A DNA stretch of 64,000 bases from Escherichia coli (GCF_030013595.1 NZ_CP122768.1); one strand, 5' to 3'; positions 4,296 to 59,863 are shown, numbered from the stretch's first letter. Notes: generated from the sequence alone by a model not told the origin. Translations and numbers: made by a program.

Positions 4296-5483
4296 TTAGA
4301 ACTGGTAGACTAAGCCCACAGCTACGATATCATCGGTAGCGATGCCGTTTTCTTTGTAGAAGTCGTCGTCGTTGTCCAGCAGGTTGATTTTGTAATCAAC
4401 GTAGGTGGACATGTTTTTGTTGAAGTAGTAGGTCATACCAATATCAACATATTTAACCAGATCTTTGTTGGTGTAATGATGATTGCCCTGGCTGTCGAAG
4501 TTATCACTATTTACACCGCCTAAATCCTTACCTTTAGATTGCAGGTAAGCGATGGACGGGCGCAGACCGAAGTCGAACTGATACTGAGCAACCACTTCAA
4601 AGTTTTGGGTTTTGTTAGCGATCGCATCAGCATCACCGTAACCAGTCATGTTACGGGTTTCAGCATACATAGCTGCTAAGTAAACGTTATTAGCGTCGTA
4701 TTTAGCACCAACGGTCCATGCTTCTGCTGTTTCACCGCCAGCAGTTGCATCGAAGCGATCTCCATAACGAGTGTTATGAGTACCTTTGTGAACCTGATTG
4801 TCGGTACGGTCAGAGTTAGAGTAAGCAGCGCCCAGACTTAAACCAAAGTCAAAGTCATAGGAAGTGGACATACCGAAGCCGTCGCCGTTCTCTTTAGCTA
4901 ACTTACGGCCATTACCGTTACCAGAACCTTCCTGACCGAATAATCCATCATCTTCATTATTACCCTGATATTGCAGAGCAAAGTTCAGGCCATCGACCTG
5001 GCCAAAGAAGCCATTGTTACGGTAGGTTGCAACACCATTAGCACGACCGTTCATGAAGTTGTCGGCACCAGCATAGGTATCGCCACCAAATTCTGGCAGC
5101 ATATCGGTCCATGCTTCGATGTCATATACGACACCGTAGTTACGACCATAGTCGAAAGTACCATTCTGACCAAAGCCTAAACCTGCAAATGCCAGACGCG
5201 TTGCGGTATTACCTTTGTCGCTTTCAGGACCGTTTGCGCCAATGTTAAATTCCCACTGACCATAACCAGTGAATTGGTCAGCGATCTGAGTTTCACCTTT
5301 GAAACCGATACGGGCATATGACATGTCGCCATCGCTGCCAGCATCATCAGAGAAGTAGTGCAGGCCCGCTACTTTTCCGTACAAATCCAGTTTATTACCA
5401 TCTTTATTATAGACTTCAGCCGCATTTGCTGCGCCAGCAACTAATAACGCCGGGACCAGCATTGCCAGAACTTTTCTTTTCAT
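4296..5483 (-). CDS. yedS: OmpC/OmpF-family outer membrane porin, apparently intact
   Basis: ORF 4296..5513; signal peptide from ATG 5483 ([21 protein letters not shown]); porin motifs; C-terminal aromatic residue. Confidence 0.8.
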
Positions 5484-6111
5484 TATGTATTCCCTTGTGA
5501 TTATAATCTTCATGAATATATCAATAAGTGCTGTTATCCAAAAAAAAGCACATTTGGATACTATTCTATGAAGTTCATTTTATTTTAAAGATTACATGTA
5601 ACAAATGTATTTAAAAGATTTCAAAATGTTTCCAATCTGTTTAATATAATTCAGAATTATGAATTCTGAATATAAATATTCACGAATATTATGAATGCAT
5701 ATCAATATGTTATGAGTTGAGCGGAAACATAGGGAGTATCAATGATTGTTGTGCTAAACGGCTGGTGTGATCTCGCGCACATTAATGAAGGCATAAAAAA
5801 AGCCGGCATCATGCCGGCCCAAAAAATATAAACAAGACGATAAAAGGCTAATAACGGAAGCATCATGACACAGAATAATAAAAAGGGATAATTGTAATCA
5901 GTGCTAATATATTGATTGAATGAATTAATAAAGCCGATATCAAAGATAAATAAAATCGCTCAAAACGATTTTTCCTGTATTCACTGCCATTGCGCAAAAA
6001 TTATCTATTTGTTCAAAAAATGATTGAGTCTTGACTGGCTCATCCAATGTGGAAAAATGTGACTTTTATCACATAATAGTACTAAGTCTGAATTTTCCGG
6101 GTTATCTCAAA

Positions 6112-46782: not shown

Positions 46783-47799
46783 TCATTTTCTCTGGCCACC
46801 AACTACGGGCACTACTTTAACTTTTCGGTCATATGCTGCTGTCTGTCGTGGGTTCTTATGCCCGGAAATTGCTTGCTTCTCTTCCAGGCTGCCTTCCAGA
46901 TCAGAGATACCTTTTGCTTTCAGATCATGAAATGTGAAGTCTATTTGCAGATGAGGATATTTTTCCTGTGCTGCCGCTTTGACATCACGCCAACGAGAGT
47001 TAAAACCATCACGGGTGTACTTGCCTCCGGTAGTTTGATGAATCACAAACAGGCTACTGATTCCCGGTTTTAATGGCAGAGAACGAGCCAGAGCTATCGC
47101 TTTCTGCAGACGAGGCGACCAGGCTTTGATTTGCTTAACGCCGGTTTTTCCCTGACGAATGTAGATCCCGGAATCGAACAGCTGGTCTTTCTGTAATGAA
47201 AGTACATCACTCTGTCTGGCCACACATAAGTAGGCAATCTCCATTGCCACGCGAACAACATCAGGAGACACTTCATAAACGGCCTGATATTCTTCATCCG
47301 TAATATAACGTTCGCGTGCTGTCTCTTTAAACTGCTTAACTCCCTGACAAGGATTCCTCTGGACATAACCTCGTTCATAACCCCAACGGAATACCCTGGA
47401 CATAAAGCTTTTTTCCCTATTTGCCTGAGTTCGGCTTGATAAACCGCGTTGATCCATATAGCGCCGAATATGTTCAGGTTTGATTTTATCCGGGTCGATC
47501 TTCCCGAAGACAGGCAGAACTTTTCCGGAATATTTTGTGTAGTCTTTCCTGGTTTCGACTGCCAAATCCATAAAATCAGGGGAGGTCATGAATTGTTCCG
47601 CGAGCGCCTGAAAAGTATTTCTTTCTTTTTCGTCACCGACCGCTTTTTCATATGCCAGCCATACGGCTGATCGTGGCGCATCCAATGCGCACAGGCGTAT
47701 CGCTTTGTTATCTTTATTCCTGAATTCGTAGGCCGCTTTGCCCTGGTAAACACGAGGCGGCATCCAGTTATCTGCTGGGTTCTTTCTCTTTCCGGCCAT
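46783..47799 (-). CDS. int: phage tyrosine integrase
   Basis: ORF 46783..47826; likely start ATG 47799 with GGAG 9 nt upstream; C-terminal catalytic region. Confidence 0.8.
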   Translation of the reverse strand: MAGKRKNPADNWMPPRVYQGKAAYEFRNKDNKAIRLCALDAPRSAVWLAYEKAVGDEKERNTFQALAEQFMTSPDFMDLAVETRKDYTKYSGKVLPVFGKIDPDKIKPEHIRRYMDQRGLSSRTQANREKSFMSRVFRWGYERGYVQRNPCQGVKQFKETARERYITDEEYQAVYEVSPDVVRVAMEIAYLCVARQSDVLSLQKDQLFDSGIYIRQGKTGVKQIKAWSPRLQKAIALARSLPLKPGISSLFVIHQTTGGKYTRDGFNSRWRDVKAAAQEKYPHLQIDFTFHDLKAKGISDLEGSLEEKQAISGHKNPRQTAAYDRKVKVVPVVGGQRK

Positions 47800-48031
47800 T
47801 AAATATTGCTCCAAAATCAGGTTCATCTTCTTTTCGCGTCGTCACCTCCTGTAAATTGCGAAATTTTATTGGGTTCAAGAAATGGCCCCAGGTTGTTTTT
47901 GGGTGCCCGTCAGCCCTTTCCATGAAGAAAATTCCAGCCCGGCGAAGAGCCTCACATTGCTTTGATTTAAGTGGGCTTCCCGTCAGCTCGACCATTTCTT
48001 CTCTGGTGATTATGTCGTGATCGCTTTTCAT
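47768..48031 (-). CDS. small phage protein, DUF4224-like (excisionase-associated)
   Basis: 87-aa ORF overlapping int start, typical xis-like position. Confidence 0.5.
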   Translation of the reverse strand: MKSDHDIITREEMVELTGSPLKSKQCEALRRAGIFFMERADGHPKTTWGHFLNPIKFRNLQEVTTRKEDEPDFGAIFNGRKEKEPSR

Positions 48032-48240
48032 GGTCTTTCCTCATTATGTAGCTTATTGCGTCATCTGCCTTCTGGCAGGCACGGGCAATATCAGACTCGG
48101 TCAAAGTCTGTTTCCTGACGCTGGCCGACAGTCGGCCAATTTTGATATCAAATGCGGAGAGCAGAGTTGCTCCCGGTTGCCATCGCAGCATTGTGATCCT
48201 CCGGTTACTGGTGAAACGCAATGCTAGCGATGGTGAGTTT

Positions 48241-48423
48241 TTATTTCTGATTAGGCGTAATCAGTTCTGGTGGGGGGAATGCCGATTTCTCCCGCGTGAC
48301 CTTAATGTTTTCTGGCAGGTGTAGCCCAAGTTCGCAGCGACTCCGTGCTTCAATAATGCCATTGGTACCATCGGCAAGTACCAGGTGAACCGCGTCACCA
48401 CGCTTTAATGTGAGTTTAAGCAT
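48241..48423 (-). CDS. hypothetical phage protein
   Basis: 60-aa ORF abutting next gene. Confidence 0.4.
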   Translation of the reverse strand: MLKLTLKRGDAVHLVLADGTNGIIEARSRCELGLHLPENIKVTREKSAFPPPELITPNQK

Positions 48424-48992
48424 TAGCGTACCCTCAGCGAACGTTCGCCGCGTTCCAGATGTGCGCCTGGTACCGGGTTTAATAACTCGGCTGGTGGTGT
48501 TTCTCCACGCGCCAGTATTTCGGCGGCAACCGCCTCCGCAGATTCAATCACTTCTTTAATGGCTCGCTTGTTTGGTGTAATAACCGTTTCTACATCAACA
48601 AGTGACACGCCTTCATACTCATCCGGGATCTTATCTTTGCTATCGATAATTACCCGGATAGCCCCCTGTGCATCAGTAAATGTGTTTTTTGCGGTTTTTA
48701 GTTTATCCAGGCCAGCAGCTTGCAGGCAGGCGAGCATATGCTTCCGAATTGCTTTTTCCTTGCCTTCAAAGGACGTCTTACGGGTAGCCAGGCGAGACAT
48801 TTCTTCAGCGCAGGTACTGGCATTGCCCTGTAAATTACGGCAGATGACCATCATGGCGTCCAGTTTGTCTCCCAGTTCTCCTTCCATACCTTCAAGCGTG
48901 TCGGCGATCATCTCTGGCGTCAGTTCGTCGGAGGTTTCTAACAGGTCAATCAGACTGGCATATTCTTTTGCAATAGCGATAGCAGTGCTCAT
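48423..48992 (-). CDS. Siphovirus Gp157-like phage protein
   Basis: 189-aa acidic ORF; family assignment from recall, tentative. Confidence 0.5.
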   Translation of the reverse strand: MSTAIAIAKEYASLIDLLETSDELTPEMIADTLEGMEGELGDKLDAMMVICRNLQGNASTCAEEMSRLATRKTSFEGKEKAIRKHMLACLQAAGLDKLKTAKNTFTDAQGAIRVIIDSKDKIPDEYEGVSLVDVETVITPNKRAIKEVIESAEAVAAEILARGETPPAELLNPVPGAHLERGERSLRVR

Positions 48993-51214
48993 GCTGTTTG
49001 CTCCTGTGCTGCGGTGAGGGCGGTGAGGCGTTCGGTTTTGATTTCATTCAAACGGCGCAGGCGCGAACCAAGATAAGTTGAATACTCCTTATCACCTTTG
49101 GATTCTGCGGCCTTGCGGTGAACTTCTACTTCCCGCGCAATAAGGCCATAGACTTTATTAACTTCATTGGGGGTTACGGCTGCAGCCAGTGTTTTGGCAA
49201 CACCTGAGAGTCGTTCATCCAGTTCTTCACGCAGTCGGGTAGCATCCTCTGCTTTCTCGCTTGCCTTCTTAATACTGTATTCTGTATTCAGCTCGGCGGT
49301 GTAGGCACTATCGTTATGCATATCCATATAAACATCTGCCGCAAATCCCAGATGAGATAGTGCTTTGACGGTGGCATCAGTAAGAGACTTTTTGGAGGCC
49401 TCTTTTTCCATTACCAGTGCCCCTTTGTTATTTTTTGATATGTAATCCGTGTGGCCATATGACGGAATAAATCCTTTCACTCCGTTCCAGATGTACCAGA
49501 GATCTATCCGGATGGTGTGTACTGACAGGCAGAACAGGGAACCGTCAGCATCCCTGACAGGTTTTTGTCCAATAATTTTCCCTGTCTGATCCTGTATAGG
49601 TTCAAGTAATGGCACACCGCGATCCACTCGCTCCTCCTTGATTTCAACTCCCCAACCAATGCCTTCCATTCCCAGCACTTCAGTCGCACGCATCAAAATA
49701 TATTGTGCGCGTATGGAGTGCAGTCCTGCACCGTAATCATTATGTGTGACATACGCAGGATCGGTCCGCTGAACGCGATTCCAGATAGCCAAATTTGCTT
49801 TGCTCTGGTCATCATTCATTGCTGACAGATAATGCTCCATGCGAATTGATGCAGTTTTTTCCTCGGCATGGGGCGGCTCAACCAGCGCGTCAACGTTCTG
49901 CACCAGGTCTTTTACCTGCTCGCTAAGTTTTTCTTGTGGAGGAGTCTCTTCTGCCGGGGTAATAGCTGCAGGTTCCCTCTGTGATACGGCGTTATTTTCA
50001 GGTACGTCATACACATGGCGAGGCGTGACAAACTGCTCACGCAACTGCTGCAAACTACGTTCTCCAGCATTTGCTGCTTCGCTTTTTTCGCCCTGATTTG
50101 AGGGTGTTTCTGACATCATTCCATCAATTGAGAATCGCCCGCCGCCGTGGTTGGTGACTTTTACATCATCCTTTGGTGCTGTTTCCTTTGGCTTCTCTTC
50201 AACAGCATTTGCATCACGCTGCCCGTTAGCTTGCAGCCAGTTGTCGATGTGACTGCGCAGGGATTGCGGGAAGTGGTACGTGTCTTTTGCGGGGGCGCTC
50301 TGAATAACACCGAATACTGATGCGCGGTCATAGGCAAGGATCTGATCCGTTGTGCGCAAGGCCATTGACCAGCGTTTAAAATCCTCCCGATCCTGGCTGA
50401 TTATTTCGTCTGCCGCTTTCAGGACGCTGGGGGTGATTTTTTCCGGGCCAACGGGTAACAGGGCGCAGGCAATTTCACGATCCAGTGTGGCGTGAGTCTG
50501 TTGGTAAGGACGTGCGGATGCTGTTTCTGGTTTTACCTCCGGCAGCATTTCATCGCGTTTACCGGGATTCTCTACCCATTTTTTTATAAATTTGGAGATA
50601 GTCCAACTGGTCGGGTTTTGTTCCTGGGTATCGCAACTTGCCAAAATTGCATGTACCAGATTATTCAATCCAGCAATATGCATGTACTCGATGGGCTTAC
50701 ACGCCACCATGGCATCAAGAACGATGCGGTTAAACGCGTCAACCTCATCCTCACTGTCAGTATCACTGTTGTCGAGCATCTCCAGGTATTCACGCGTCTG
50801 CGCAAGCAATTCACTGTCGACTTCGTTGGCGTCGTGGCTGAACAGCAGGACGGCGGCGAAGCGTTCACGAGCCGGCAGTTTCATCAGGTCGTTAACCTGT
50901 GCGATATCTGCTGAACCGCTATCTGAATCAGCGGGGGTGTTAACTACCCATTTTTCGCCATCAAAACTGTGTTCTGTGGCAAACGTCTCATCAAACTCAC
51001 CGACGCCAGGGCGCGGTTGGCCCGGGGCATCTTCCCAGATTTTAGGTTTGAAATAGTTGTCGCCGTGGTCAGGGTAGGCTTCCCACAATTTGCCGATGAT
51101 GATGTTCTCGGCAACTTTTTTGTTAGGGGCGTCGATGGCGATGGCCAGCGCCGGGATCGCGCCGTTTTTGAGCGCGCCTTTTTTCGCTTCTAACAAGCCG
51201 TTAAAGATGGTCAT
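48989..51214 (-). CDS. large phage protein: acidic N-terminal region fused to Rad52-like single-strand annealing domain
   Basis: 741-aa ORF; C-terminal FCLSVHTIRIDL...SYGHTDY...KALSHLGFAADVY resembles Rad52/Sak core. Confidence 0.55.
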   Translation of the reverse strand: MTIFNGLLEAKKGALKNGAIPALAIAIDAPNKKVAENIIIGKLWEAYPDHGDNYFKPKIWEDAPGQPRPGVGEFDETFATEHSFDGEKWVVNTPADSDSGSADIAQVNDLMKLPARERFAAVLLFSHDANEVDSELLAQTREYLEMLDNSDTDSEDEVDAFNRIVLDAMVACKPIEYMHIAGLNNLVHAILASCDTQEQNPTSWTISKFIKKWVENPGKRDEMLPEVKPETASARPYQQTHATLDREIACALLPVGPEKITPSVLKAADEIISQDREDFKRWSMALRTTDQILAYDRASVFGVIQSAPAKDTYHFPQSLRSHIDNWLQANGQRDANAVEEKPKETAPKDDVKVTNHGGGRFSIDGMMSETPSNQGEKSEAANAGERSLQQLREQFVTPRHVYDVPENNAVSQREPAAITPAEETPPQEKLSEQVKDLVQNVDALVEPPHAEEKTASIRMEHYLSAMNDDQSKANLAIWNRVQRTDPAYVTHNDYGAGLHSIRAQYILMRATEVLGMEGIGWGVEIKEERVDRGVPLLEPIQDQTGKIIGQKPVRDADGSLFCLSVHTIRIDLWYIWNGVKGFIPSYGHTDYISKNNKGALVMEKEASKKSLTDATVKALSHLGFAADVYMDMHNDSAYTAELNTEYSIKKASEKAEDATRLREELDERLSGVAKTLAAAVTPNEVNKVYGLIAREVEVHRKAAESKGDKEYSTYLGSRLRRLNEIKTERLTALTAAQEQTA

Positions 51215-51244
51215 TGGTCTTTCCTCATTACAGGTCAGTGGTCT

Positions 51245-51565
51245 TTAGTAGGGGATTTCATCAGTATCTGGCGTGTATTCGATGCAAAGTAACTGCTGGA
51301 TTTTGTCATCGATAGCAGCAATACGCTGTTGGGCGTCGGCGACTGTTTTCTGTTTTTGCTCATACAGCTGCTCGACCTGCAAACCGATGATGTCGATTGG
51401 CTGGGGCTGGTTGACGGTAATTTCAATTTCGCGGCTTTCCAGAAGGATGTACCTGTCTGGAAAATTTTTTGACATATCAACAGTCGCAACAAGCAGCTTT
51501 TCGTGGCTGAAAGTTGAAGTTGCATAATTAATAAAGAGTGTTACTGGGATGGTGCGCGCTTCCAT
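51245..51565 (-). CDS. hypothetical phage protein
   Basis: 106-aa ORF with AAGGAG RBS. Confidence 0.5.
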   Translation of the reverse strand: MEARTIPVTLFINYATSTFSHEKLLVATVDMSKNFPDRYILLESREIEITVNQPQPIDIIGLQVEQLYEQKQKTVADAQQRIAAIDDKIQQLLCIEYTPDTDEIPY

Positions 51566-52561
51566 AGCGACTCCTTGGTGATGTATACTCGGGACCGATC
51601 AGCGAATATTGATCAGCTTCCATAGCGTCAGTGTCGTTGGTCTTTCCTCATCACAAGTTTGGTCACTTGTGATAAATCCGAATGGTTTGGTCGCCGTTCG
51701 GGGTAACTGGCCCGCCTTGTGCGGGTCTTTTGCTATCTAAAGGGTGCCGGTTACGTTTCCGGCGTCGTTATGTTTCCATCACGACCGTACGGGGCTGGTC
51801 TTTCCTGTTTTGAGCTGGTCAGGCTCATGGTCAACGCTGGTCAGGCGTGGTACTTCCTCCGGTCTTTCCCTGGTGTCACGCTGCGGGTTTGGCCTCTCCT
51901 GTTGGGGACTCAGGCACAGCGATAAAACCTGGCTGTGTGAAAAAATGGCCCATCGTGCGGACTGGGCAAAGGCTAAACACAGCAAATTGATGATGGGCGC
52001 CCGGAATCGAACCGGGTAACGGGCAGGGAGTTCCCGTTAAACACCTGTTCACCACAACCGGGAGCGCACTCCGCCATTTCAAAATTTAACGACAAAGCTC
52101 AAAGTTGAGTCGATGAAGTGCGCTCTCGTGTTGTAGCCAGGACTCTTCCCTGGTGGTCACACCGTATCGCCTTGATGGTGAATCAATCGCTCATACCTGG
52201 CTGTGGCTTGCACATTCCGGCTAGCTGCTATGGAGACAACGCGTTAAGGCTCCGCTTCCATCCAGACCGCTTCGACACATGTGCCATATGCCGGCGAAGT
52301 CTTTCCCTCTGTCATCGTGTTGGCGCCGACGCGCAAAATTTGATGCCGTCTTTCCGGCTGTCAGAACGTGTTTCTGAACAACTGCCGCTGGGTAAGCGTT
52401 GTTGATGAAAGTGACTTTACAATTTGTATTTGTAATGGTCAACGTATTTTTAAAAAATAATTTGTAGTTAGGGGCAAAAAAATATTCACTGTGTAAAGGT
52501 GTTTTTGTGTTAGGGGGAAAGTTGCATGCCAGCAGCGGCTGGCCTGGAAATTTGAACTGAA

Positions 52562-52975
52562 CTATTTTGTCTGGTTTTTGGCTTCAAGTAGTTCTTTTAG
52601 CAGTAGATCGAAGTGCTCTCTTTTTTCTTTTAGCTCATTGATTAATTTATTTTTTTCGCTCTCAGGCAGTCCTCTGAATAGTTGCAGTAGAGCCTGTTCT
52701 TGCGGGGTTAGTTCTTGATTGTAATTACCCGGGTGTAGCGTGGATTCATCCAAATATTCACCTTCATTCATGAAGAAAAAATGAACAGGGTATCCGGTCA
52801 CTTTTGCTAGCTTGTCTAATTTATCTTTTCTTGGAGTTACCCCATTACACCATGCCTGAACTGATTGAGCCGTAACCCCAATATGGCGAGCTAACTCAGA
52901 TTGAGACCAGCCTAAGTCTTTTAGAATCCGTTGTAGTCGGCTAGCAAAAGCCATGTTTTTCGTTTTTGTGTTCAT
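52562..52975 (-). CDS. phage repressor-like HTH protein (cI-like)
   Basis: ORF 52562..52990 opens on TTG; HTH (GWSQSELARHIGVTAQSVQAW); divergent from cro-like gene; start uncertain. Confidence 0.7.
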   Translation of the reverse strand: MNTKTKNMAFASRLQRILKDLGWSQSELARHIGVTAQSVQAWCNGVTPRKDKLDKLAKVTGYPVHFFFMNEGEYLDESTLHPGNYNQELTPQEQALLQLFRGLPESEKNKLINELKEKREHFDLLLKELLEAKNQTK

Positions 52976-52994
52976 ACCGTAAGGATACAAGGTT

Positions 52995-53060
52995 TAATTG
53001 TAGGGAGCATTGCAAATATAATTTGTAATTACAGTTATGATTTGTAATGATGGCGCGGAC
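52995..53060. promoter_or_regulatory. candidate operator/promoter region between divergent repressor and cro-like genes
   Basis: Repeated ATTTGTAAT half-sites (ttgcaaatataatttgtaattacagttatgatttgtaatga). Confidence 0.45.
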
Positions 53061-53073
53061 ACAAGGAGTCCAT

Positions 53074-53304
53074 ATGGATAAACAACTGCAAGACAAAATT
53101 CTTTCCGTAATGAGTCAATCCGAGTTAGGGCGGCGATTAGGGAAAAAACCACAAACGGTAAGCCTCTGGTTCAAAGGAAGGGTTCCCGGTGAAGAGGTTT
53201 TGCGCACATCTGAAGCTCTTGAATGGCGCGTGACCCCCCATGATCTTAGACCGGATCTTTACCCAAACCCAGATGACAGCTTGCCTAAAACGAAAGCAGC
53301 TTAA
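53074..53304 (+). CDS. Cro-like HTH regulator
   Basis: ORF 53047..53304; ATG 53074 after AAGGAG; HTH (SQSELGRRLGKKPQTVSLW). Confidence 0.7.
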   Translation: MDKQLQDKILSVMSQSELGRRLGKKPQTVSLWFKGRVPGEEVLRTSEALEWRVTPHDLRPDLYPNPDDSLPKTKAA

Positions 53305-53362
53305 CTGTTGGTGAGCCCCAAATCTGATTAAGCGTAATCAATTTTTAGCGACAGGAGACGCT

Positions 53363-53839
53363 ATGGAAAACCAAGAGGAATTACAAAAAGAGATTTTGAC
53401 CTGGGCGGCAAGGGCAGGGCAGGAACTCGTCACGATTGAAATCTGCCGGGCCTGGTTCAGTCAGGGACGCAATGATGAGTTGAGACTACATGAATTTGAG
53501 GACGCGGACGGCAATGTGGACTGGAGAGCCATCAACAACAATCGGCAGAAAATCTTTCGCTGGTTACGTGGCGAGACAACGGCGGCGCGCCGAAAAACTC
53601 AGGTGCTGGCCAGTGTGATGAAAGCCGTGCTACCCGCAGAACGGCGGGCGCGTCTGGAGTCGCCGGGCGATCCCGTTTTGCTGGCAACGCTGGCGGCAAA
53701 AGAAGGGGTGGAAGCGATTAACGCTGTACATCTCCACTTCGCGCCAGAGATAACTATTCAGGAAATTGACGAAGCAATAGCGGCGCTGGTAGCGACGCGA
53801 GGGGCAGTGATAAGCACTGCGCAAGGCCATCATGCATGA
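53363..53839 (+). CDS. hypothetical phage early protein
   Basis: 158-aa ORF after cro-like gene. Confidence 0.5.
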   Translation: MENQEELQKEILTWAARAGQELVTIEICRAWFSQGRNDELRLHEFEDADGNVDWRAINNNRQKIFRWLRGETTAARRKTQVLASVMKAVLPAERRARLESPGDPVLLATLAAKEGVEAINAVHLHFAPEITIQEIDEAIAALVATRGAVISTAQGHHA

Positions 53840-53878
53840 GCGCCTGACCAGCGTTTAACTTATACCGAGGAAAGACCG

Positions 53879-54103
53879 ATGTTAAGACATATTGACCGCA
53901 TTACCTGGCGTAACGGCTGGCACCTGAATGGACGCCCGGCACATGTTGCAGAGATCCAACCTATTTTTGATGGGCGTATGGCTGCCGCGCTTTCGGTGTG
54001 GGAGCAGTATGAATCCAGGAAGGTCGAGTTGCGCGACAAAGGGCTGAGCAATGCGGACTATGAAGCCGGTTGTCGTCAGATAGCCGAAGCTCTGGAGATC
54101 TGA
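53879..54103 (+). CDS. hypothetical phage protein
   Basis: 74-aa ORF preceded by conserved leader ...accgaggaaagaccgATG. Confidence 0.45.
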   Translation: MLRHIDRITWRNGWHLNGRPAHVAEIQPIFDGRMAAALSVWEQYESRKVELRDKGLSNADYEAGCRQIAEALEI

Positions 54104-54105
54104 GT

Positions 54106-55182
54106 ATGAGTCGTTTGCTGATTAACGAAAACCCCCTTCAGGTCCTGCCCACGTTGGCATGCACTATAGGGTTGAATGAAGCCATCGTTCTACAGCAAAT
54201 CCACTACTGGCTGAATTCATCTCAAAATTTCTTCGAAAATCGCCACTGGGTGTACAACAGTGTGACCGATTGGCAAGAACAATTCCCGTTCTGGAGCGAG
54301 TCGACAATAAAACGCGTGCTGGCCAATCTGGAAAAATTGAATGTGGTATTTACTGGGAACTTTAACAGTGATGCCTGGGATAAAACCAAGTGGTATTCAA
54401 TCAATTATGCCCAGTTATGTAAGATTGAAGAGACAACATTCCCTGTGGCCAATCGATTAGGTCAAGTTGACCCAATCGAAGAGGTCAATGTGACCCAAGC
54501 ATCAGGTCAAGTTGACCCATGCGCTAAGGTCAAAATGACCCAATCTCTTACAGAGAATACAACAGAGAGTACTACAGAGAGTACTACAGAGATAAAAGAT
54601 CCCCCTTACCCCCAAAAGGGGGAGGGCGAGGAAATCATTCTCGCTGACGCTCAAAAAGCTCTGAACTACTACAACGAGAAAGTCGGTACACGCTGCCGCG
54701 ACGTTAAACCGTTTGTCATGCTGCTGACTGCCACCACCACCCGCGCTGGTTACAGCGTGGCTGAGATTCAGTTAGTAATTCGTTGGGTTATTGCGACATG
54801 GCGCCGTCGTAGCGGAAGCGTGCCGAAACCTGCGAACATTTGCCGCGTAAACCGGTTTGACGGATATCTGGCTGACGCTGAGGCGTGGGCCACTGCTGAG
54901 GCTGCCGTTGACCCTGCTGAAGTTGTGAAGGGCTACAACGAGATTCTGGGCGACCTGCTACCTATAGCTGAAATTGATACTGACCGCCGTCGGGCAATCC
55001 TGCGCCTGCTGGCACATATGCGCACGCAAACTCTTGGCGCATTTATCGGCTACTTCGAAAAATTCCGCGATAACGCCCCAGACTTCTATTTCGGCGGCGA
55101 ATATCGCACCGGCTGGCGGGCAGGGTTTGATTACCTGATGAAGCCAGAAACACTGCGTAAAACCAGGGAAGGGGCATTATGA
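54106..55182 (+). CDS. phage replisome organizer (O-like initiator)
   Basis: ORF 54070..55182; ATG 54106 after GGAG; iterons inside the coding sequence. Confidence 0.7.
   Translation: MSRLLINENPLQVLPTLACTIGLNEAIVLQQIHYWLNSSQNFFENRHWVYNSVTDWQEQFPFWSESTIKRVLANLEKLNVVFTGNFNSDAWDKTKWYSINYAQLCKIEETTFPVANRLGQVDPIEEVNVTQASGQVDPCAKVKMTQSLTENTTESTTESTTEIKDPPYPQKGEGEEIILADAQKALNYYNEKVGTRCRDVKPFVMLLTATTTRAGYSVAEIQLVIRWVIATWRRRSGSVPKPANICRVNRFDGYLADAEAWATAEAAVDPAEVVKGYNEILGDLLPIAEIDTDRRRAILRLLAHMRTQTLGAFIGYFEKFRDNAPDFYFGGEYRTGWRAGFDYLMKPETLRKTREGAL
54459..54542 (+). repeat. four iterons AGGTCAAnnTGACCCA at 22-23 bp spacing (candidate ori)
   Basis: Copies at 54459, 54482, 54504 and 54527; followed by tandem acagagagtact repeats. 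Confidence 0.7.
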
Positions 55183-56570
55183 ATCCAGAAGAACTGGAAG
55201 CGATCGTTCTCGCTGGTCTGATTAACGGTGGCGCGACGCCTGACGCGTTTGATGTGATTGCCACTACTCCGGAGGAAGCCTTCAGCATCGTGTTTCACCG
55301 TCGCGCTTTCAGCGAAATCAAAAAGCAGGCACTGGCGAACGGCATGATCGACATGTTGTTTATCAGCGAAGCGCTGGGCGGTTCCAGCCTTGCGGATCTG
55401 TCTCAAATATCCCGGATCCCGGCAACGGTACCGAATCTGAAAGGCTATGCCGGGAAAATGGTGCGGGCATGGCGGAGCCGCAAAATGGCGGCATTGTTGC
55501 AATCTGGCGCGGATGGTATCCGTAACGCTGTAAACCAGAGTCAGCGTGATGAGGTTATTGAATCTCATGTTGCTCAGGTGCTGGATATGAGCGCCGCTAC
55601 CGGCACAGTCCAGCCGGTACACATCAAAGAGCTGTTACCGCTCTACATTGACACCGTTGATAAACGGATGTCTGGCGACGCGCAGGAAATGATGCTGAAA
55701 ACCGGAGTCGAGGATCTGGATGTCGCCCTGGGCGGTATCAACATGACCGACCTTGTTGTGGTTGCCGGTCGTCCAGGCATGGGGAAAACGGAATTTACCC
55801 TGAAGATTATCGATGGCGTTACCGCAGATGGCGGCGGCGCACTGTTTTTCAGCATGGAAATGGGCGCTCAGCAGATTGTTGAACGTACCGTTGCCGGGGC
55901 TGGGAATATGTCCACGTCGCGTCTGCGTAATCCAAAAGAAATGGACGATGAGGATTTGACCAGATTAACCGCCGCGCTTGCAATCATGCAGGATCGCGAT
56001 ATCTGGATTGTTGATGCCACTGATTTGACGATTGAGCAGATCCGCGCCATTGCAGAGACTCATAAACGCCGTTATCCGCACCTGAAGTTGATTGGTGTTG
56101 ATTACATGGGCCTGATCAAAAAACCGAAGGCCGAGCGCCACGATCTCGCTGTCGGGCATATCTCCCGCAACATGAAGACTATGGCCATGCGTCTGCATAC
56201 CCCTGTTTTTGCTCTTAGCCAGCTTTCCCGCCAGGTGGATTCTCGACCTGCTGGCCAGCGTCGCCCGGTGATGTCGGACCTGCGCGATTCCGGCAGTGTT
56301 GAGCAGGACGCTGACAGCATTTTGTTTTTGTACCGCGATGAAGTTTACACACCTGATTCACCTGCAAAGGGTATCGCCGAGGTGATTATCGGTAAAAACC
56401 GTTCTGGCGGGGCAGGTGAAATTATTTATCAGGAATTCCGGAATGGGCATTTCCTGCCAATTGATCAACACGTAGCACGCGAAAAATTACGCATCCAGAA
56501 GGAGGCAGAGCAACCGAGAAAACGTGAAAAACGGTATTCAAACAAAAACTTTAATACGGACCCATTTTAA
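55179..56570 (+). CDS. DnaB-family replicative helicase
   Basis: 463-aa ORF; Walker A GRPGMGKTEF. Confidence 0.85.
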   Translation: MNPEELEAIVLAGLINGGATPDAFDVIATTPEEAFSIVFHRRAFSEIKKQALANGMIDMLFISEALGGSSLADLSQISRIPATVPNLKGYAGKMVRAWRSRKMAALLQSGADGIRNAVNQSQRDEVIESHVAQVLDMSAATGTVQPVHIKELLPLYIDTVDKRMSGDAQEMMLKTGVEDLDVALGGINMTDLVVVAGRPGMGKTEFTLKIIDGVTADGGGALFFSMEMGAQQIVERTVAGAGNMSTSRLRNPKEMDDEDLTRLTAALAIMQDRDIWIVDATDLTIEQIRAIAETHKRRYPHLKLIGVDYMGLIKKPKAERHDLAVGHISRNMKTMAMRLHTPVFALSQLSRQVDSRPAGQRRPVMSDLRDSGSVEQDADSILFLYRDEVYTPDSPAKGIAEVIIGKNRSGGAGEIIYQEFRNGHFLPIDQHVAREKLRIQKEAEQPRKREKRYSNKNFNTDPF

Positions 56571-56608
56571 CCACGCATGACCAGCGTGAAATAACCGAGG
56601 AAAGACCA

Positions 56609-57019
56609 ATGACCACCATTTCAGGCAAATTAGAGTACCCGTCGGACAAAGGACACATAGACGACGGTAAAAACTATCTCGACGTCATTTTGTGGAATAT
56701 GAACGCCGGGCCACGTGCGCGCACTCGTGCGGTTTTTGTACCAAGACCCAAAGCAGGCAATTTTTCAACACCAGCTCAGCCTGCCCGTCAGGCATCCGTA
56801 GCCGCAGCGCCAGCAGTGAAATGTAAGGGTAAAACGCACATCGGGATCGCGATTCGCAGAAATGGTGAGCGGCAAGTGAAACTCCACGAAACAGCGACAA
56901 CCTGGTGTGCTTCACCGCATGAAACTTACGACAAGATAACCGGGCAGCGCATTGGTGCGCCTGGTCGCTGTCGCCTGCTGTTGAGCTCCATCACTCCGAT
57001 AGAAAAGAAAGGGGCGTGA
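56609..57019 (+). CDS. hypothetical phage protein
   Basis: 136-aa ORF preceded by conserved leader ...accgaggaaagaccaATG. Confidence 0.45.
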   Translation: MTTISGKLEYPSDKGHIDDGKNYLDVILWNMNAGPRARTRAVFVPRPKAGNFSTPAQPARQASVAAAPAVKCKGKTHIGIAIRRNGERQVKLHETATTWCASPHETYDKITGQRIGAPGRCRLLLSSITPIEKKGA

Positions 57020-58649: not shown

Positions 58650-58976
58650 ATGACTAAAAATACTCGTTTTTCCCCCGAAGTCCGTCAGCGGGCGATTCGT
58701 ATGGTTCTGGAAAGTCAGGATGAATATGACTCACAGTGGGCGGCAATTTGTTCCATTGCCCCAAAGATTGGCTGTACGCCGGAGACTCTGCGTGTCTGGG
58801 TTCGCCAGCATGAGCGGGATACCGGGGGCGGTGATGGTGGGCTCACCAGCGCTGAACGTCAGCGTCTGAAAGAGCTGGAACGTGAAAATCGTGAACTGCG
58901 CCGCAGTAACGATATCCTTCGCCAGGCTTCCGCTTATTTTGCGAAGGCGGAGTTCGACCGCCTCTGGAAAAAATGA
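58650..58976 (+). CDS. IS3-family transposase OrfA
   Basis: 108-aa [25 protein letters not shown] recognised as IS629/IS1203 OrfA. Confidence 0.9.
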
Positions 58977-59863
58977 TGCCACTGCTGGATAAGCTGCGTG
59001 AGCAGTACGGGGTCGGACCGGTATGTAGCGAACTGCATATTGCCCCGTCAACGTATTACCATTGTCAGCAACAGCGACATCATCCGGATAAACGCAGTGC
59101 CCGTGCGCAGCACGATGACTGGCTGAAGAAAGAGATACAGCGCGTATACGATGAAAATCACCAGGTATACGGTGTGCGTAAAGTCTGGCGTCAGTTGTTA
59201 CGGGAAGGTATCAGAGTGGCCAGATGCACTGTGGCACGTCTCATGGCAGTTATGGGACTTGCCGGTGTTCTCCGGGGTAAAAAGGTCCGCACTACCGTCA
59301 GCCGGAAAGCCGTTGCCGCAGGCGACCGCGTAAACCGTCAGTTCGTGGCAGAACGACCTGACCAGCTGTGGGTGGCTGATTTTACTTACGTCAGCACATG
59401 GCAGGGCTTCGTCTATGTGGCGTTTATCATTGATGTGTTTGCCGGATACATCGTGGGGTGGCGGGTCTCATCGTCTATGGAAACGACATTCGTGCTGGAT
59501 GCGCTGGAGCAGGCGTTGTGGGCCCGTCGTCCGTCTGGCACCATCCATCACAGCGATAAAGGCTCTCAGTATGTGTCACTGGCCTATACGGAGCGACTAA
59601 AAGAAGCCGGATTACTGGCATCAACAGGGAGTACAGGCGACTCGTATGACAACGCGATGGCTGAGAGCATCAATGGTCTTTACAAAGCGGAGGTAATACA
59701 CCGTAAGAGCTGGAAAAAACGTGCAGAAGTGGAACTGGCCACACTAACGTGGGTGGACTGGTATAACAATCGACGATTGCTGGGAAGGCTGGGCCATACT
59801 CCTCCGGCAGAAGCAGAAAAAGCTTATTATGCTTCCATCGGAAACGATGATCTGGCAGCCTGA
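58973..59863 (+). CDS. IS3-family transposase OrfB (DDE integrase-like)
   Basis: 296-aa ORF overlapping orfA in -1 frame. Confidence 0.9.

Follow-up and report, generated by a model that had tools for sequence, protein, structure and literature searches.

The leader that precedes a 74-aa open reading frame in the early region of an Escherichia coli lambdoid prophage is one of a set of similar sequences placed at the starts of several early genes of this element. We think it fairly likely that this leader serves two purposes, as a translation-initiation region and as the target of a predicted phage-encoded, trans-acting antisense sRNA. According to this proposal, the leader block is conserved beyond the needs of ribosome binding because it is the target of the sRNA. 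The candidate RNA, not described before, is encoded by the prophage itself, on the strand opposite to the left operon.

Prophage context and early region

The window, i.e., the whole stretch of 64,000 nucleotides that was analyzed, is a piece of E. coli chromosome with DsrA, rseX, and the glyW-cysT-leuZ tRNA genes. The last of these, leuZ, is the integration site of a lambdoid prophage that starts at about 46650. The features of its early region are the following.

int, minus strand, annotated in the near-identical H1
47768-48031, minus strand, DUF4224/xis gene (excisionase-like)
48423-48992, minus strand, Gp157 gene
48989-51214, minus strand, gene of a 741-aa exonuclease (exo)
51245-51565, minus strand, 106-aa ORF
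51566-52560, gene-free stretch of about 1 kb
52414..52442, minus strand, PL promoter TTGACC-17-TAAAGT (promoter scan; flanking operator-like ATTTGTA repeats)
52562-52954, minus strand, cI-like gene
53074-53304, plus strand, cro-like gene
53363-53839, plus strand, YdaT/cII-like gene (stop codon 53837-53839)
53879-54103, plus strand, 74-aa ORF
54106-55182, plus strand, O-like gene
55179-56570, plus strand, DnaB gene (stop codon 56568-56570)
56609-57019, plus strand, 136-aa ORF

Of 5426 complete E. coli genomes, 479 (about 9%) have this early region at 95-100% identity. Among isolated phages, the 74-aa gene is present only in Pectobacterium phage ZF40 and in the pair BUCT708/709, all of which have the synteny of the whole early region in common with the window prophage. 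The prophage group is also represented in Serratia, Citrobacter, Enterobacter, and Pectobacterium phages.

Several other elements were observed along the prophage. Operator-like ATTTGTA(AT) repeats lie on both sides of the cI-like gene (52420-52470 and 53005-53050), in the positions of OL at PL and of OR between cI and cro. There is an inverted repeat TGATTA-N5-TAATCA 5' of ydaT (about 53325-53341). Within the O-like gene, four iteron-like repeats GGTCAA-NN-TGACCCA (54458-54545, plus strand) are probably the phage replication origin, and they are followed by tandem ACAGAGAGTACT repeats (about 54560-54595). The prophage also has an IS3-family element at 58650-59863 (ALIL pseudoknot, 119 bits), downstream of which there are LprI-like and DUF262 cargo genes. 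In a near-identical prophage of strain HCP5S3_I2, the IS3 is inside the exonuclease gene instead.

A motif repeated at the starts of early genes

The motif GAGGAAAGACC has five exact copies and one copy with a single mismatch in the 64 kb. These six matches at up to one mismatch compare with 0.56 expected, and none of 100 shuffles reached six. The leader of roughly 35 nt that an earlier note on this DNA had described before the ORFs starting at 53879 and 56609 is thus real, and can be read directly in front of both. The other conserved part of the leader, TGACCAGCGT, has four exact matches, and its 10 matches at up to one mismatch, against 3.4 expected, represent only a marginal excess. All six copies of GAGGAAAGACC are within 48032-56607, i.e., in the prophage early region, and they are co-oriented with transcription, so that the left operon has minus-strand copies and the right one plus-strand copies. 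We list them below together with GGGAAAGACC and, for those next to a start codon, with the energy of the duplex predicted with the sRNA seed presented further on.

48029-48042, minus strand, GAGGAAAGACC (motif 48032-48042) adjoining the DUF4224/xis ATG with no gap; seed duplex -25.1 kcal/mol
51212-51226, minus strand, GAGGAAAGACC, a, and the ATG of the 741-aa exonuclease gene, reading taatGAGGAAAGACCaATG; seed duplex -33.0 kcal/mol
51639-51649, minus strand, exact copy of GAGGAAAGACC in the gene-free stretch
51797-51807, minus strand, CAGGAAAGACC, one mismatch to GAGGAAAGACC, no gene after it
51861-51870, minus strand, GGGAAAGACC, further copy, no gene after it
53867-53881, plus strand, GAGGAAAGACC (motif 53867-53877), g, and the ATG of the 74-aa gene; seed duplex -25.6 kcal/mol
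56597-56611, plus strand, GAGGAAAGACC (motif 56597-56607), a, and the ATG of the 136-aa gene; seed duplex -31.0 kcal/mol

Thus four genes of the window (xis, exo, 74-aa, and 136-aa) have a copy 0-1 nt away from the ATG. In the copy of the 74-aa gene (53867..53881), which is a predicted target of the sRNA, the Shine-Dalgarno (SD) sequence, spacer, and start codon are all included. The motif holds the SD core GAGG 8 nt before the ATG, and the early genes at whose start codons it is found, at a distance of 0-3 nt, are unrelated to one another, in line with the earlier suggestion of a translation-initiation signal. The other role suggested in that note, RNA processing, is not needed to explain any of these observations. 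The cI, cro, ydaT, and 106-aa genes have another SD context (ACAAGGAGT / ACAGGAGA), while the translationally coupled genes have neither the motif nor this other context.

The earlier note had also pointed to an inverse-orientation copy before the 741-aa gene at 51214, which is present and is explained by the leftward operon, and to degenerate copies in 51600-51880. This region has an exact copy, a one-mismatch copy, and GGGAAAGACC, and what it also includes, and was not recognized, is the predicted antisense sRNA gene. The copy of xis (48032-48042) was missing from that list. The earlier reading is supported in part; it overlooked the hairpin upstream of the motif, the predicted antisense sRNA gene, and the leftward operon. 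The signal is best read as a common target for a trans-acting RNA, beyond a shared ribosome-binding site.

The motif is also conserved in relatives of the prophage. Searching with a strict pattern for the whole leader gave 76 IMG/VR loci, in which it always precedes homologs of the 74-aa or of the 136-aa gene. A scan of genome contigs gave just four loci. The shorter sequence GGAAAGACC has 494 occurrences in 77 related loci (780 kb), when roughly 6 are expected by chance, although here and below the counts of loci overstate independence since many are near-identical prophages of Enterobacteriaceae. These copies precede at least 10 unrelated gene families, on top of forming gene-free arrays, and their strand polarity around the cI/cro divergence point is near-perfect. 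ZF40 and BUCT708, whose genomes are complete, have the motif in the early region alone, apart from a few stray matches that look like chance. Finally, heteroimmune relatives, which have unrelated cI genes and operators, keep the motif.

A hairpin upstream of the motif

The sequence TGACCAGCGT corresponds to the loop and the 3' arm of a small hairpin (hairpin A), with the loop YUGACCA in the two right-arm leaders. Additional copies are found in the leader of the PL transcript.

53837..53857, plus strand, hairpin A copy 1, stem GCGC/GCGU (extendable to 7 bp), loop CUGACCA at 53844-53850; read as GCGC-CTGACCA-GCGT (53840-53854), directly 3' of the ydaT stop codon
56572..56588, plus strand, hairpin A copy 2, stem CACGC/GCGUG, loop AUGACCA; read as ACGC-ATGACCA-GCGT (56573-56587), just 3' of the dnaB stop codon
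51812-51826, minus strand, hairpin A in the PL leader, GAGC-CUGACCA-GCUC
51834-51848, minus strand, hairpin A in the PL leader, ACGC-CUGACCA-GCGU

Between this hairpin, with its stem of 4-7 bp, and the single-stranded block that follows, GAGGAAAGACC(A)AUG, there are 10-16 nt. In the minimum free energy fold of the single sequence, both copies of hairpin A form and the SD block is largely open. We collected 168 distinct leader-associated sites across the relatives; the four stem positions are paired in 88-96% of them, compared with 37% at other TGACC sites. The stems of relatives are varied (GCGC/GCGC, GAGC/GCUC, GGGC/GCCC, ACGG/CCGU, GGGA/UCCU, GAGU/ACUC, and others) and include G.U pairs on the sense strand. 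This covariation, together with the sense-strand G.U pairs, shows that hairpin A is an RNA element in the mRNA sense.

A predicted antisense sRNA gene in the PL leader region

The gene-free stretch upstream of the 106-aa ORF has, on the plus strand, the elements of a small RNA gene.

51585-51590, plus strand, -10 hexamer TATACT of the predicted sRNA promoter
about 51597-51737, plus strand, predicted antisense sRNA of about 140 nt with deduced ends (covariance model, terminator, fold)
51633-51649, plus strand, single-stranded sRNA seed GUCGUUGGUCUUUCCUC
51650-51673, plus strand, hairpin HP1, loop UUGGUC
51678-51701, plus strand, hairpin HP2, loop UUUGGUCG
51709-51727, plus strand, stem of an intrinsic terminator, then UUUU at 51728-51731 (terminator scan)

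The core of the seed, UUGGUCUUUCCUC, is the exact complement of the motif. Located a short distance upstream of the 106-aa gene, the sRNA gene is convergent with PL and antisense to its leader. A Rho-independent terminator with a U tail is present on the same strand, as expected of a trans-acting sRNA, and this terminator has no plus-strand gene upstream of it.

The -10 TATA.T, the seed, the T-run, the UUGGUC loop of each hairpin, and a GGGUAA linker do not vary in an alignment of 25 distinct homologs made with MAFFT. HP1 and HP2 are 98.2% paired in these sequences, with double changes at 15 of 18 pairs (0 of 500 shuffles), whereas controls in which the hairpins were slid gave 33-53% pairing. 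When the comparison included 47 distinct sequences, in an alignment fitted to a covariance model, the values were 96.4% and 18 of 20 pairs (again 0 of 500 shuffles). G.U pairs account for 73 of 435 cells, such that pairing is 98% on the plus strand and 82% on the PL-sense strand; this asymmetry fixes the plus-strand orientation of the sRNA.

The covariance model, built from the seed, HP1, and HP2, has a single strong match in the 64 kb (51631-51708, 94.5 bits, E = 8e-25). Of 70 related sources, 66 also have one strong match, which in every case is on the strand opposite to the left operon. Downstream, a GC-rich hairpin with a T-run is found in all 44 distinct loci (44/44), where several stems show compensating changes. 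Upstream, the hexamer TATA[ACT]T is present in 43 of the 44, and in 42 it is 24-32 nt 5' of the model match; the positions T1, A2, T3, A4, and T6 are invariant among the 25 aligned homologs. In many relatives the hexamer is TATAAT, often in the extended form TGATATAAT/TGATATACT. The -10 of the window is 47 nt 5' of the match because of an insertion in this copy. The 5' region of this sRNA copy (51600-51632, plus strand) has an internal duplication (GCTTCCATAGCG at 51556-51567 and at 51616-51627), which makes the 5' hairpin longer than that of most relatives and accounts for the distant -10. The promoter was missed by the consensus promoter scan because its -35 is poor.

The RNA of the window folds with -61.9 kcal/mol (z = -6.8). 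According to this prediction, a 5' GAUCAG takes up the UUGGUC half of the seed, so that only UUUCCUC stays open. ZF40 has a counterpart (L080 5223-5362) with TATAAT, the seed, a UUUGGUC-loop hairpin, and a perfect terminator, GCCUGCC-UAAC-GGCGGGC-UUUUUU. It is located inside the annotated gp08 ORF (L080 4919-5407, GTG start 5407). This annotation probably over-extends the ORF, as the homolog of the 106-aa ORF of the window would begin at the ATG at 5212. As annotated, the ZF40 gp08 ORF probably overlies the predicted sRNA gene.

None of the Rfam families matched 51597-51737 at the gathering score, and a permissive scan of 51200-53100 gave only chance-level matches, such as Trp_leader with 19 bits on the terminator. 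Nothing of this kind is listed in a 2025 review of phage sRNAs (PMC12197685), and a literature search by sequence string gave only matches to unrelated eukaryotic primers.

Other elements of the PL leader

The PL transcript passes through extra leader units at 51797..51870 (minus strand), located in its untranslated leader and with no gene after them, and it is antisense to the sRNA gene. In relatives, the PL leaders have arrays of motif and hairpin units longer than that of the window. The start of the PL leader (CAUCAACNACGC...GCGGCAGUUGUUCAGAAAC) is conserved among heteroimmune relatives. It has two hairpins with an invariant GAAAGA hexaloop on the minus strand (hairpin B), GCCG-GAAAGA-CGGC at 52345-52358 and GAGG-GAAAGA-CUUC at 52296-52309, within the first ~50-110 nt of the transcript. 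Their loop is closed by G-C and they are preceded by (C)UGACAG. The stems covary in relatives and the hairpins look boxB-like, but they have no counterpart in the right arm. We rejected them as sRNA targets: the loop stays GAAAGA in the clade with the GGUCUUGCC seed, and hairpin B is therefore treated as a separate element of the PL leader.

Two further observations concern the same leader. There is an intrinsic terminator in the PL sense (51962>51948) inside its untranslated part. A tRNA-like segment at 51992-52075 (minus strand), with the T-arm CCCGGUUCGAUUCCGGG and acceptor-like ends, is found in ZF40 (L080 ~5440-5500) and in some relatives while missing in others, which indicates an insert in the PL leader. 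ARAGORN made no call on this segment, and the tRNA-Sec model gave only 19 bits. By analogy with the precursors of P1 C4 and P4 CI, it might be an RNase P-type processing signal. We discarded a match to RprA (RF00034) at 51938-52048 (minus strand), whose 34 bits (E = 0.095) are well below the gathering score of 70; blastn of this RprA-like element against E. coli genomes retrieved only prophage copies and no chromosomal rprA.

Predicted pairing and co-variation between the sRNA and the leaders

Duplex energies were computed from seed-only duplexes; full-length versions gave unrealistically long interior loops. The seed of the window forms duplexes of 11-19 nt with the four distant gene starts, with energies of -25 to -33 kcal/mol, compared with -6.6 to -16.1 kcal/mol for phage gene starts lacking the motif and -11.6 +/- 3.5 kcal/mol (minimum -22.1) for 86 host ORF starts. 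Over all comparisons, the energies were -25 to -37 kcal/mol for cognate duplexes, -15 to -24 for non-cognate ones, and -7 to -20 for non-motif phage genes, and cognate duplexes were better than cross-clade ones by 5-15 kcal/mol. At the exo and 136-aa genes, the duplex GAGGAAAGACCAAUGAC : GUCGUUGGUCUUUCCUC spans from the SD through AUG+2, which may explain why many motif genes start with AUGACC.

Targets and seeds change together across clades. A clade formed by ZF40 and about 28 ZF40-like loci has GGCAAGACC at nearly all its start-proximal copies, in both arms, and GGUCUUGCC as the seed, while the other loci have the A/U version in both. Loci with GGAAAGACC targets all have the GGTCTTTCC seed, those with GGCAAGACC targets (about 29) all have the GGTCTTGCC seed, and the main variants are never mixed within a locus. 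The A/U and C/G clades thus represent a natural compensatory double mutant. The A/C switch may have been a single evolutionary event and, since the seed is necessarily the complement of one leader copy, gene conversion or co-evolution with a protein could also give a concerted change. In a third subgroup of three IMG/VR loci (L136, L141, and L145), we observed the seed ...GGUCUUUCCUA(A/G) and a leader of the 74-aa gene, UUUAGGAAAGACC, that has UAGG in place of GAGG and matches this seed; the other targets in these loci have CAGG, AAGG, or GAGG, so the co-variation of the flank is only partial.

The rare single-base variants of the targets are about 15 wobble-compatible changes (A>G, C>U) and about 5 others, with no G>A, in numbers that are small and not fully independent. 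Such a bias is expected from pairing with a fixed RNA and not from recognition by a protein. The UUGGUC(A) loops of the sRNA and the UGACCA loop of the leader hairpin, all of them invariant, are complementary to each other. Finally, the covariance model has weak matches on the antisense strand of the leaders, so that a leader resembles the reverse complement, in diverged form, of the seed and HP1 together.

Alternative explanations

The motif might instead be a translational operator or enhancer bound by a phage or host protein, in the manner of T4 RegA, which acts on early mRNAs, with the antisense RNA acting only in cis on the 5' UTR of the 106-aa gene. We consider this improbable. The occurrence of the motif only at start codons of unrelated early genes would be natural for such an operator, but no RNA-binding domain was found in the ten early proteins scanned (Pfam, PHROGs). 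The concerted A>C change in all copies of one clade would fit co-evolution with a protein just as well, whereas the bias toward A>G and C>U without any G>A points to pairing with a fixed RNA and is unexpected for a protein. The unresolved function of the similar SAS elements (PMC3203893) leaves room for a protein, yet here the motif has an exact complement with the architecture of an sRNA, as identified by the model in 66/70 sources and by the -10 in 43/44 loci.

It is also unlikely, in our opinion, that the leader works with no trans factor at all, as an efficient ribosome-binding cassette placed after intergenic gaps and homogenized by duplication or recombination at module boundaries, with the hairpin as a 3' stabilizer of the upstream cistron. 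The hairpin is indeed directly 3' of stop codons, and genes with overlapping stop and start lack the leader. The same leader precedes non-homologous genes after dnaB (the 136-aa, 222-aa, and 225-aa families), which places it at mosaic joints. A cassette would not account for the conservation of AAAGACCA, which has no role in pairing with rRNA, nor for the wobble-biased variants, for sRNA loops that are invariant and complementary, or for the copies of the untranslated PL leader that have no gene after them. Highly improbable is a DNA site, either a transcription-polar site for a phage protein, similar to the L5 stoperators, or part of a phage-specific promoter. The motif does have the asymmetry, the intergenic position, and, in both arms, the orientation with transcription that would fit such a site. 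However, it is shared by heteroimmune relatives, whose cI and operators differ, the neighboring hairpin shows compensation of the RNA type including sense-strand G.U, no sigma-70-like promoter is called at the leaders, and the 0-3 nt distance to the ATG fits translation.

Some more specific identities were considered and rejected. The leader is not a promoter, given that no sigma-70-like site was called there. As for a nut site, the boxA-like GCGUUUAAC is absent from the second leader, the GAAAGA-loop hairpins are found only in the PL leader, the right arm has no boxB-type hairpin, and no N-like family was found among the ten early proteins scanned (Pfam, PHROGs). A CsrA sponge was discarded upon inspection of the sequence, where the loops are GAAAGA and UGACCA and not of the CsrA-binding type, ANGGAN. 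We also set aside, and do not rely on, pairing of the motif with 16S rRNA. The E. coli 16S rRNA presumably contains UGGUCUUG near 985, complementary to CAAGACCA, in a segment that we take to be helical in the ribosome and to differ in Pectobacterium.

Proposed mechanism and significance

We return to the leader as the probable target of an antisense sRNA. What we infer from the elements described above is that the prophage makes this sRNA and that it works in trans as a repressor. In the four target genes (xis, exo, 74-aa, and 136-aa), SD and AUG would be covered by an 11-19 bp duplex with the seed GUCGUUGGUCUUUCCUC, and the loop-loop contact between UUGGUC(A) and UGACCA may nucleate the binding. 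Occlusion of SD and AUG would repress the translation of excision, recombination, and replication genes together, and the neighbors of the 136-aa gene would be repressed as well. The starts of the O-like and DnaB genes abut or overlap the preceding stop, and hence their translation would depend on that of the 74-aa gene and be repressed along with it. The cI, cro, and cII-like genes would be spared because of their different SD context.

The sRNA would accumulate while PL is repressed. More speculatively, the firing of PL might interfere with the sRNA promoter and at the same time supply decoy sites, as the units in the PL leader may be decoy or attenuation sites for the sRNA. A further possibility, which we put forward only tentatively, is a second, RNA-based immunity. 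The prophage would express the sRNA constitutively and silence its own excision, recombination, and replication genes as well as those of superinfecting relatives of any cI type, with at least two specificity types (A/U and C/G), and the PL arrays would act as a sponge. Upon induction, this promoter-proximal sponge and the interference by the convergent PL would release the targets.

If the proposal is true, a single small RNA co-ordinately gates excision, recombination, and replication in this prophage group, and cross-immunity between heteroimmune phages becomes possible. Start-associated repeats of phages have so far been without a known partner; here there is a concrete sRNA candidate that co-varies with the repeat.

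Comparison with known systems

Small antisense RNAs are found in the early or immunity regions of lambdoid phages, where P22 Sar/Sas, lambda OOP and aQ, and BTP1 STnc6030 modulate the translation or stability of phage mRNAs, and some of them mediate superinfection exclusion (PMC12197685). Each of these RNAs acts on a single overlapping or adjacent gene, and none has been described with a leader repeated across multiple genes.

The stoperators of L5 (Cluster A) are many asymmetric 13-bp copies in short intergenic regions, oriented with transcription. They are DNA sites of the immunity repressor that act on transcription elongation. In contrast, the motif described here is common to heteroimmune phages and is tied to start codons and to an RNA hairpin. 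Site specificity does not track the immunity type as it does in L5, since relatives with unrelated cI and operators keep the motif.

Functionally, the closest systems are the antisense immunity RNAs C4, CI, and CA. Citron and Schuster reportedly described in 1990 the pairing of the C4 antisense RNA near the ribosome-binding site, as well as its specificity types. The P4 CI RNA and the N15 CA RNA follow the antisense logic of C4. In P1 and P7, C4 is a structured phage sRNA whose exposed parts pair around the ribosome-binding site of its own mRNA and block a lytic function, and base differences in the RNA, with matching differences in the target, define the P1 and P7 types (PMC12197685). These types parallel the GGAAAGACC/GGUCUUUCC and GGCAAGACC/GGUCUUGCC types found here. 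However, C4, CI, and CA are processed from the transcript that they regulate, within one operon, whereas the sRNA proposed here is convergent with PL, would be made from a predicted promoter of its own up to its own terminator, and has four to seven targets, all gene starts, dispersed over both early operons. The Rfam C4 model (RF01695) matched neither the sequence nor the structure of 51597-51737, nor of 51200-53100 in the permissive scan. The sRNA is thus not a member of the C4 family.

In terms of the leader itself, the best parallel is with the start-associated sequences (SAS) that Pope et al. (2011) described in mycobacteriophages of Cluster K. These asymmetric repeats have about 13 bp and an SD core and are placed a few bp before unrelated starts, in one orientation and only in the non-structural part of the genome; about half of the copies have a second conserved element just upstream (ESAS), and the partner, RNA or protein, was left open (PMC3203893). 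The leader described here matches this anatomy point for point, except for the sequence and the upstream element. The SAS consensus is GGGATAGGAGCCC, in phages of another host phylum, and differs from our leader. Moreover, the 17-bp inverted repeats of ESAS do not support RNA pairing (PMC3203893), while those of hairpin A do. The relation between the two is one of analogy and not of membership. No complementary RNA has been reported for SAS, whereas here a candidate sRNA is identified, and if the RNA-immunity reading were true it would provide a testable mechanism for SAS-type repeats in other phages.
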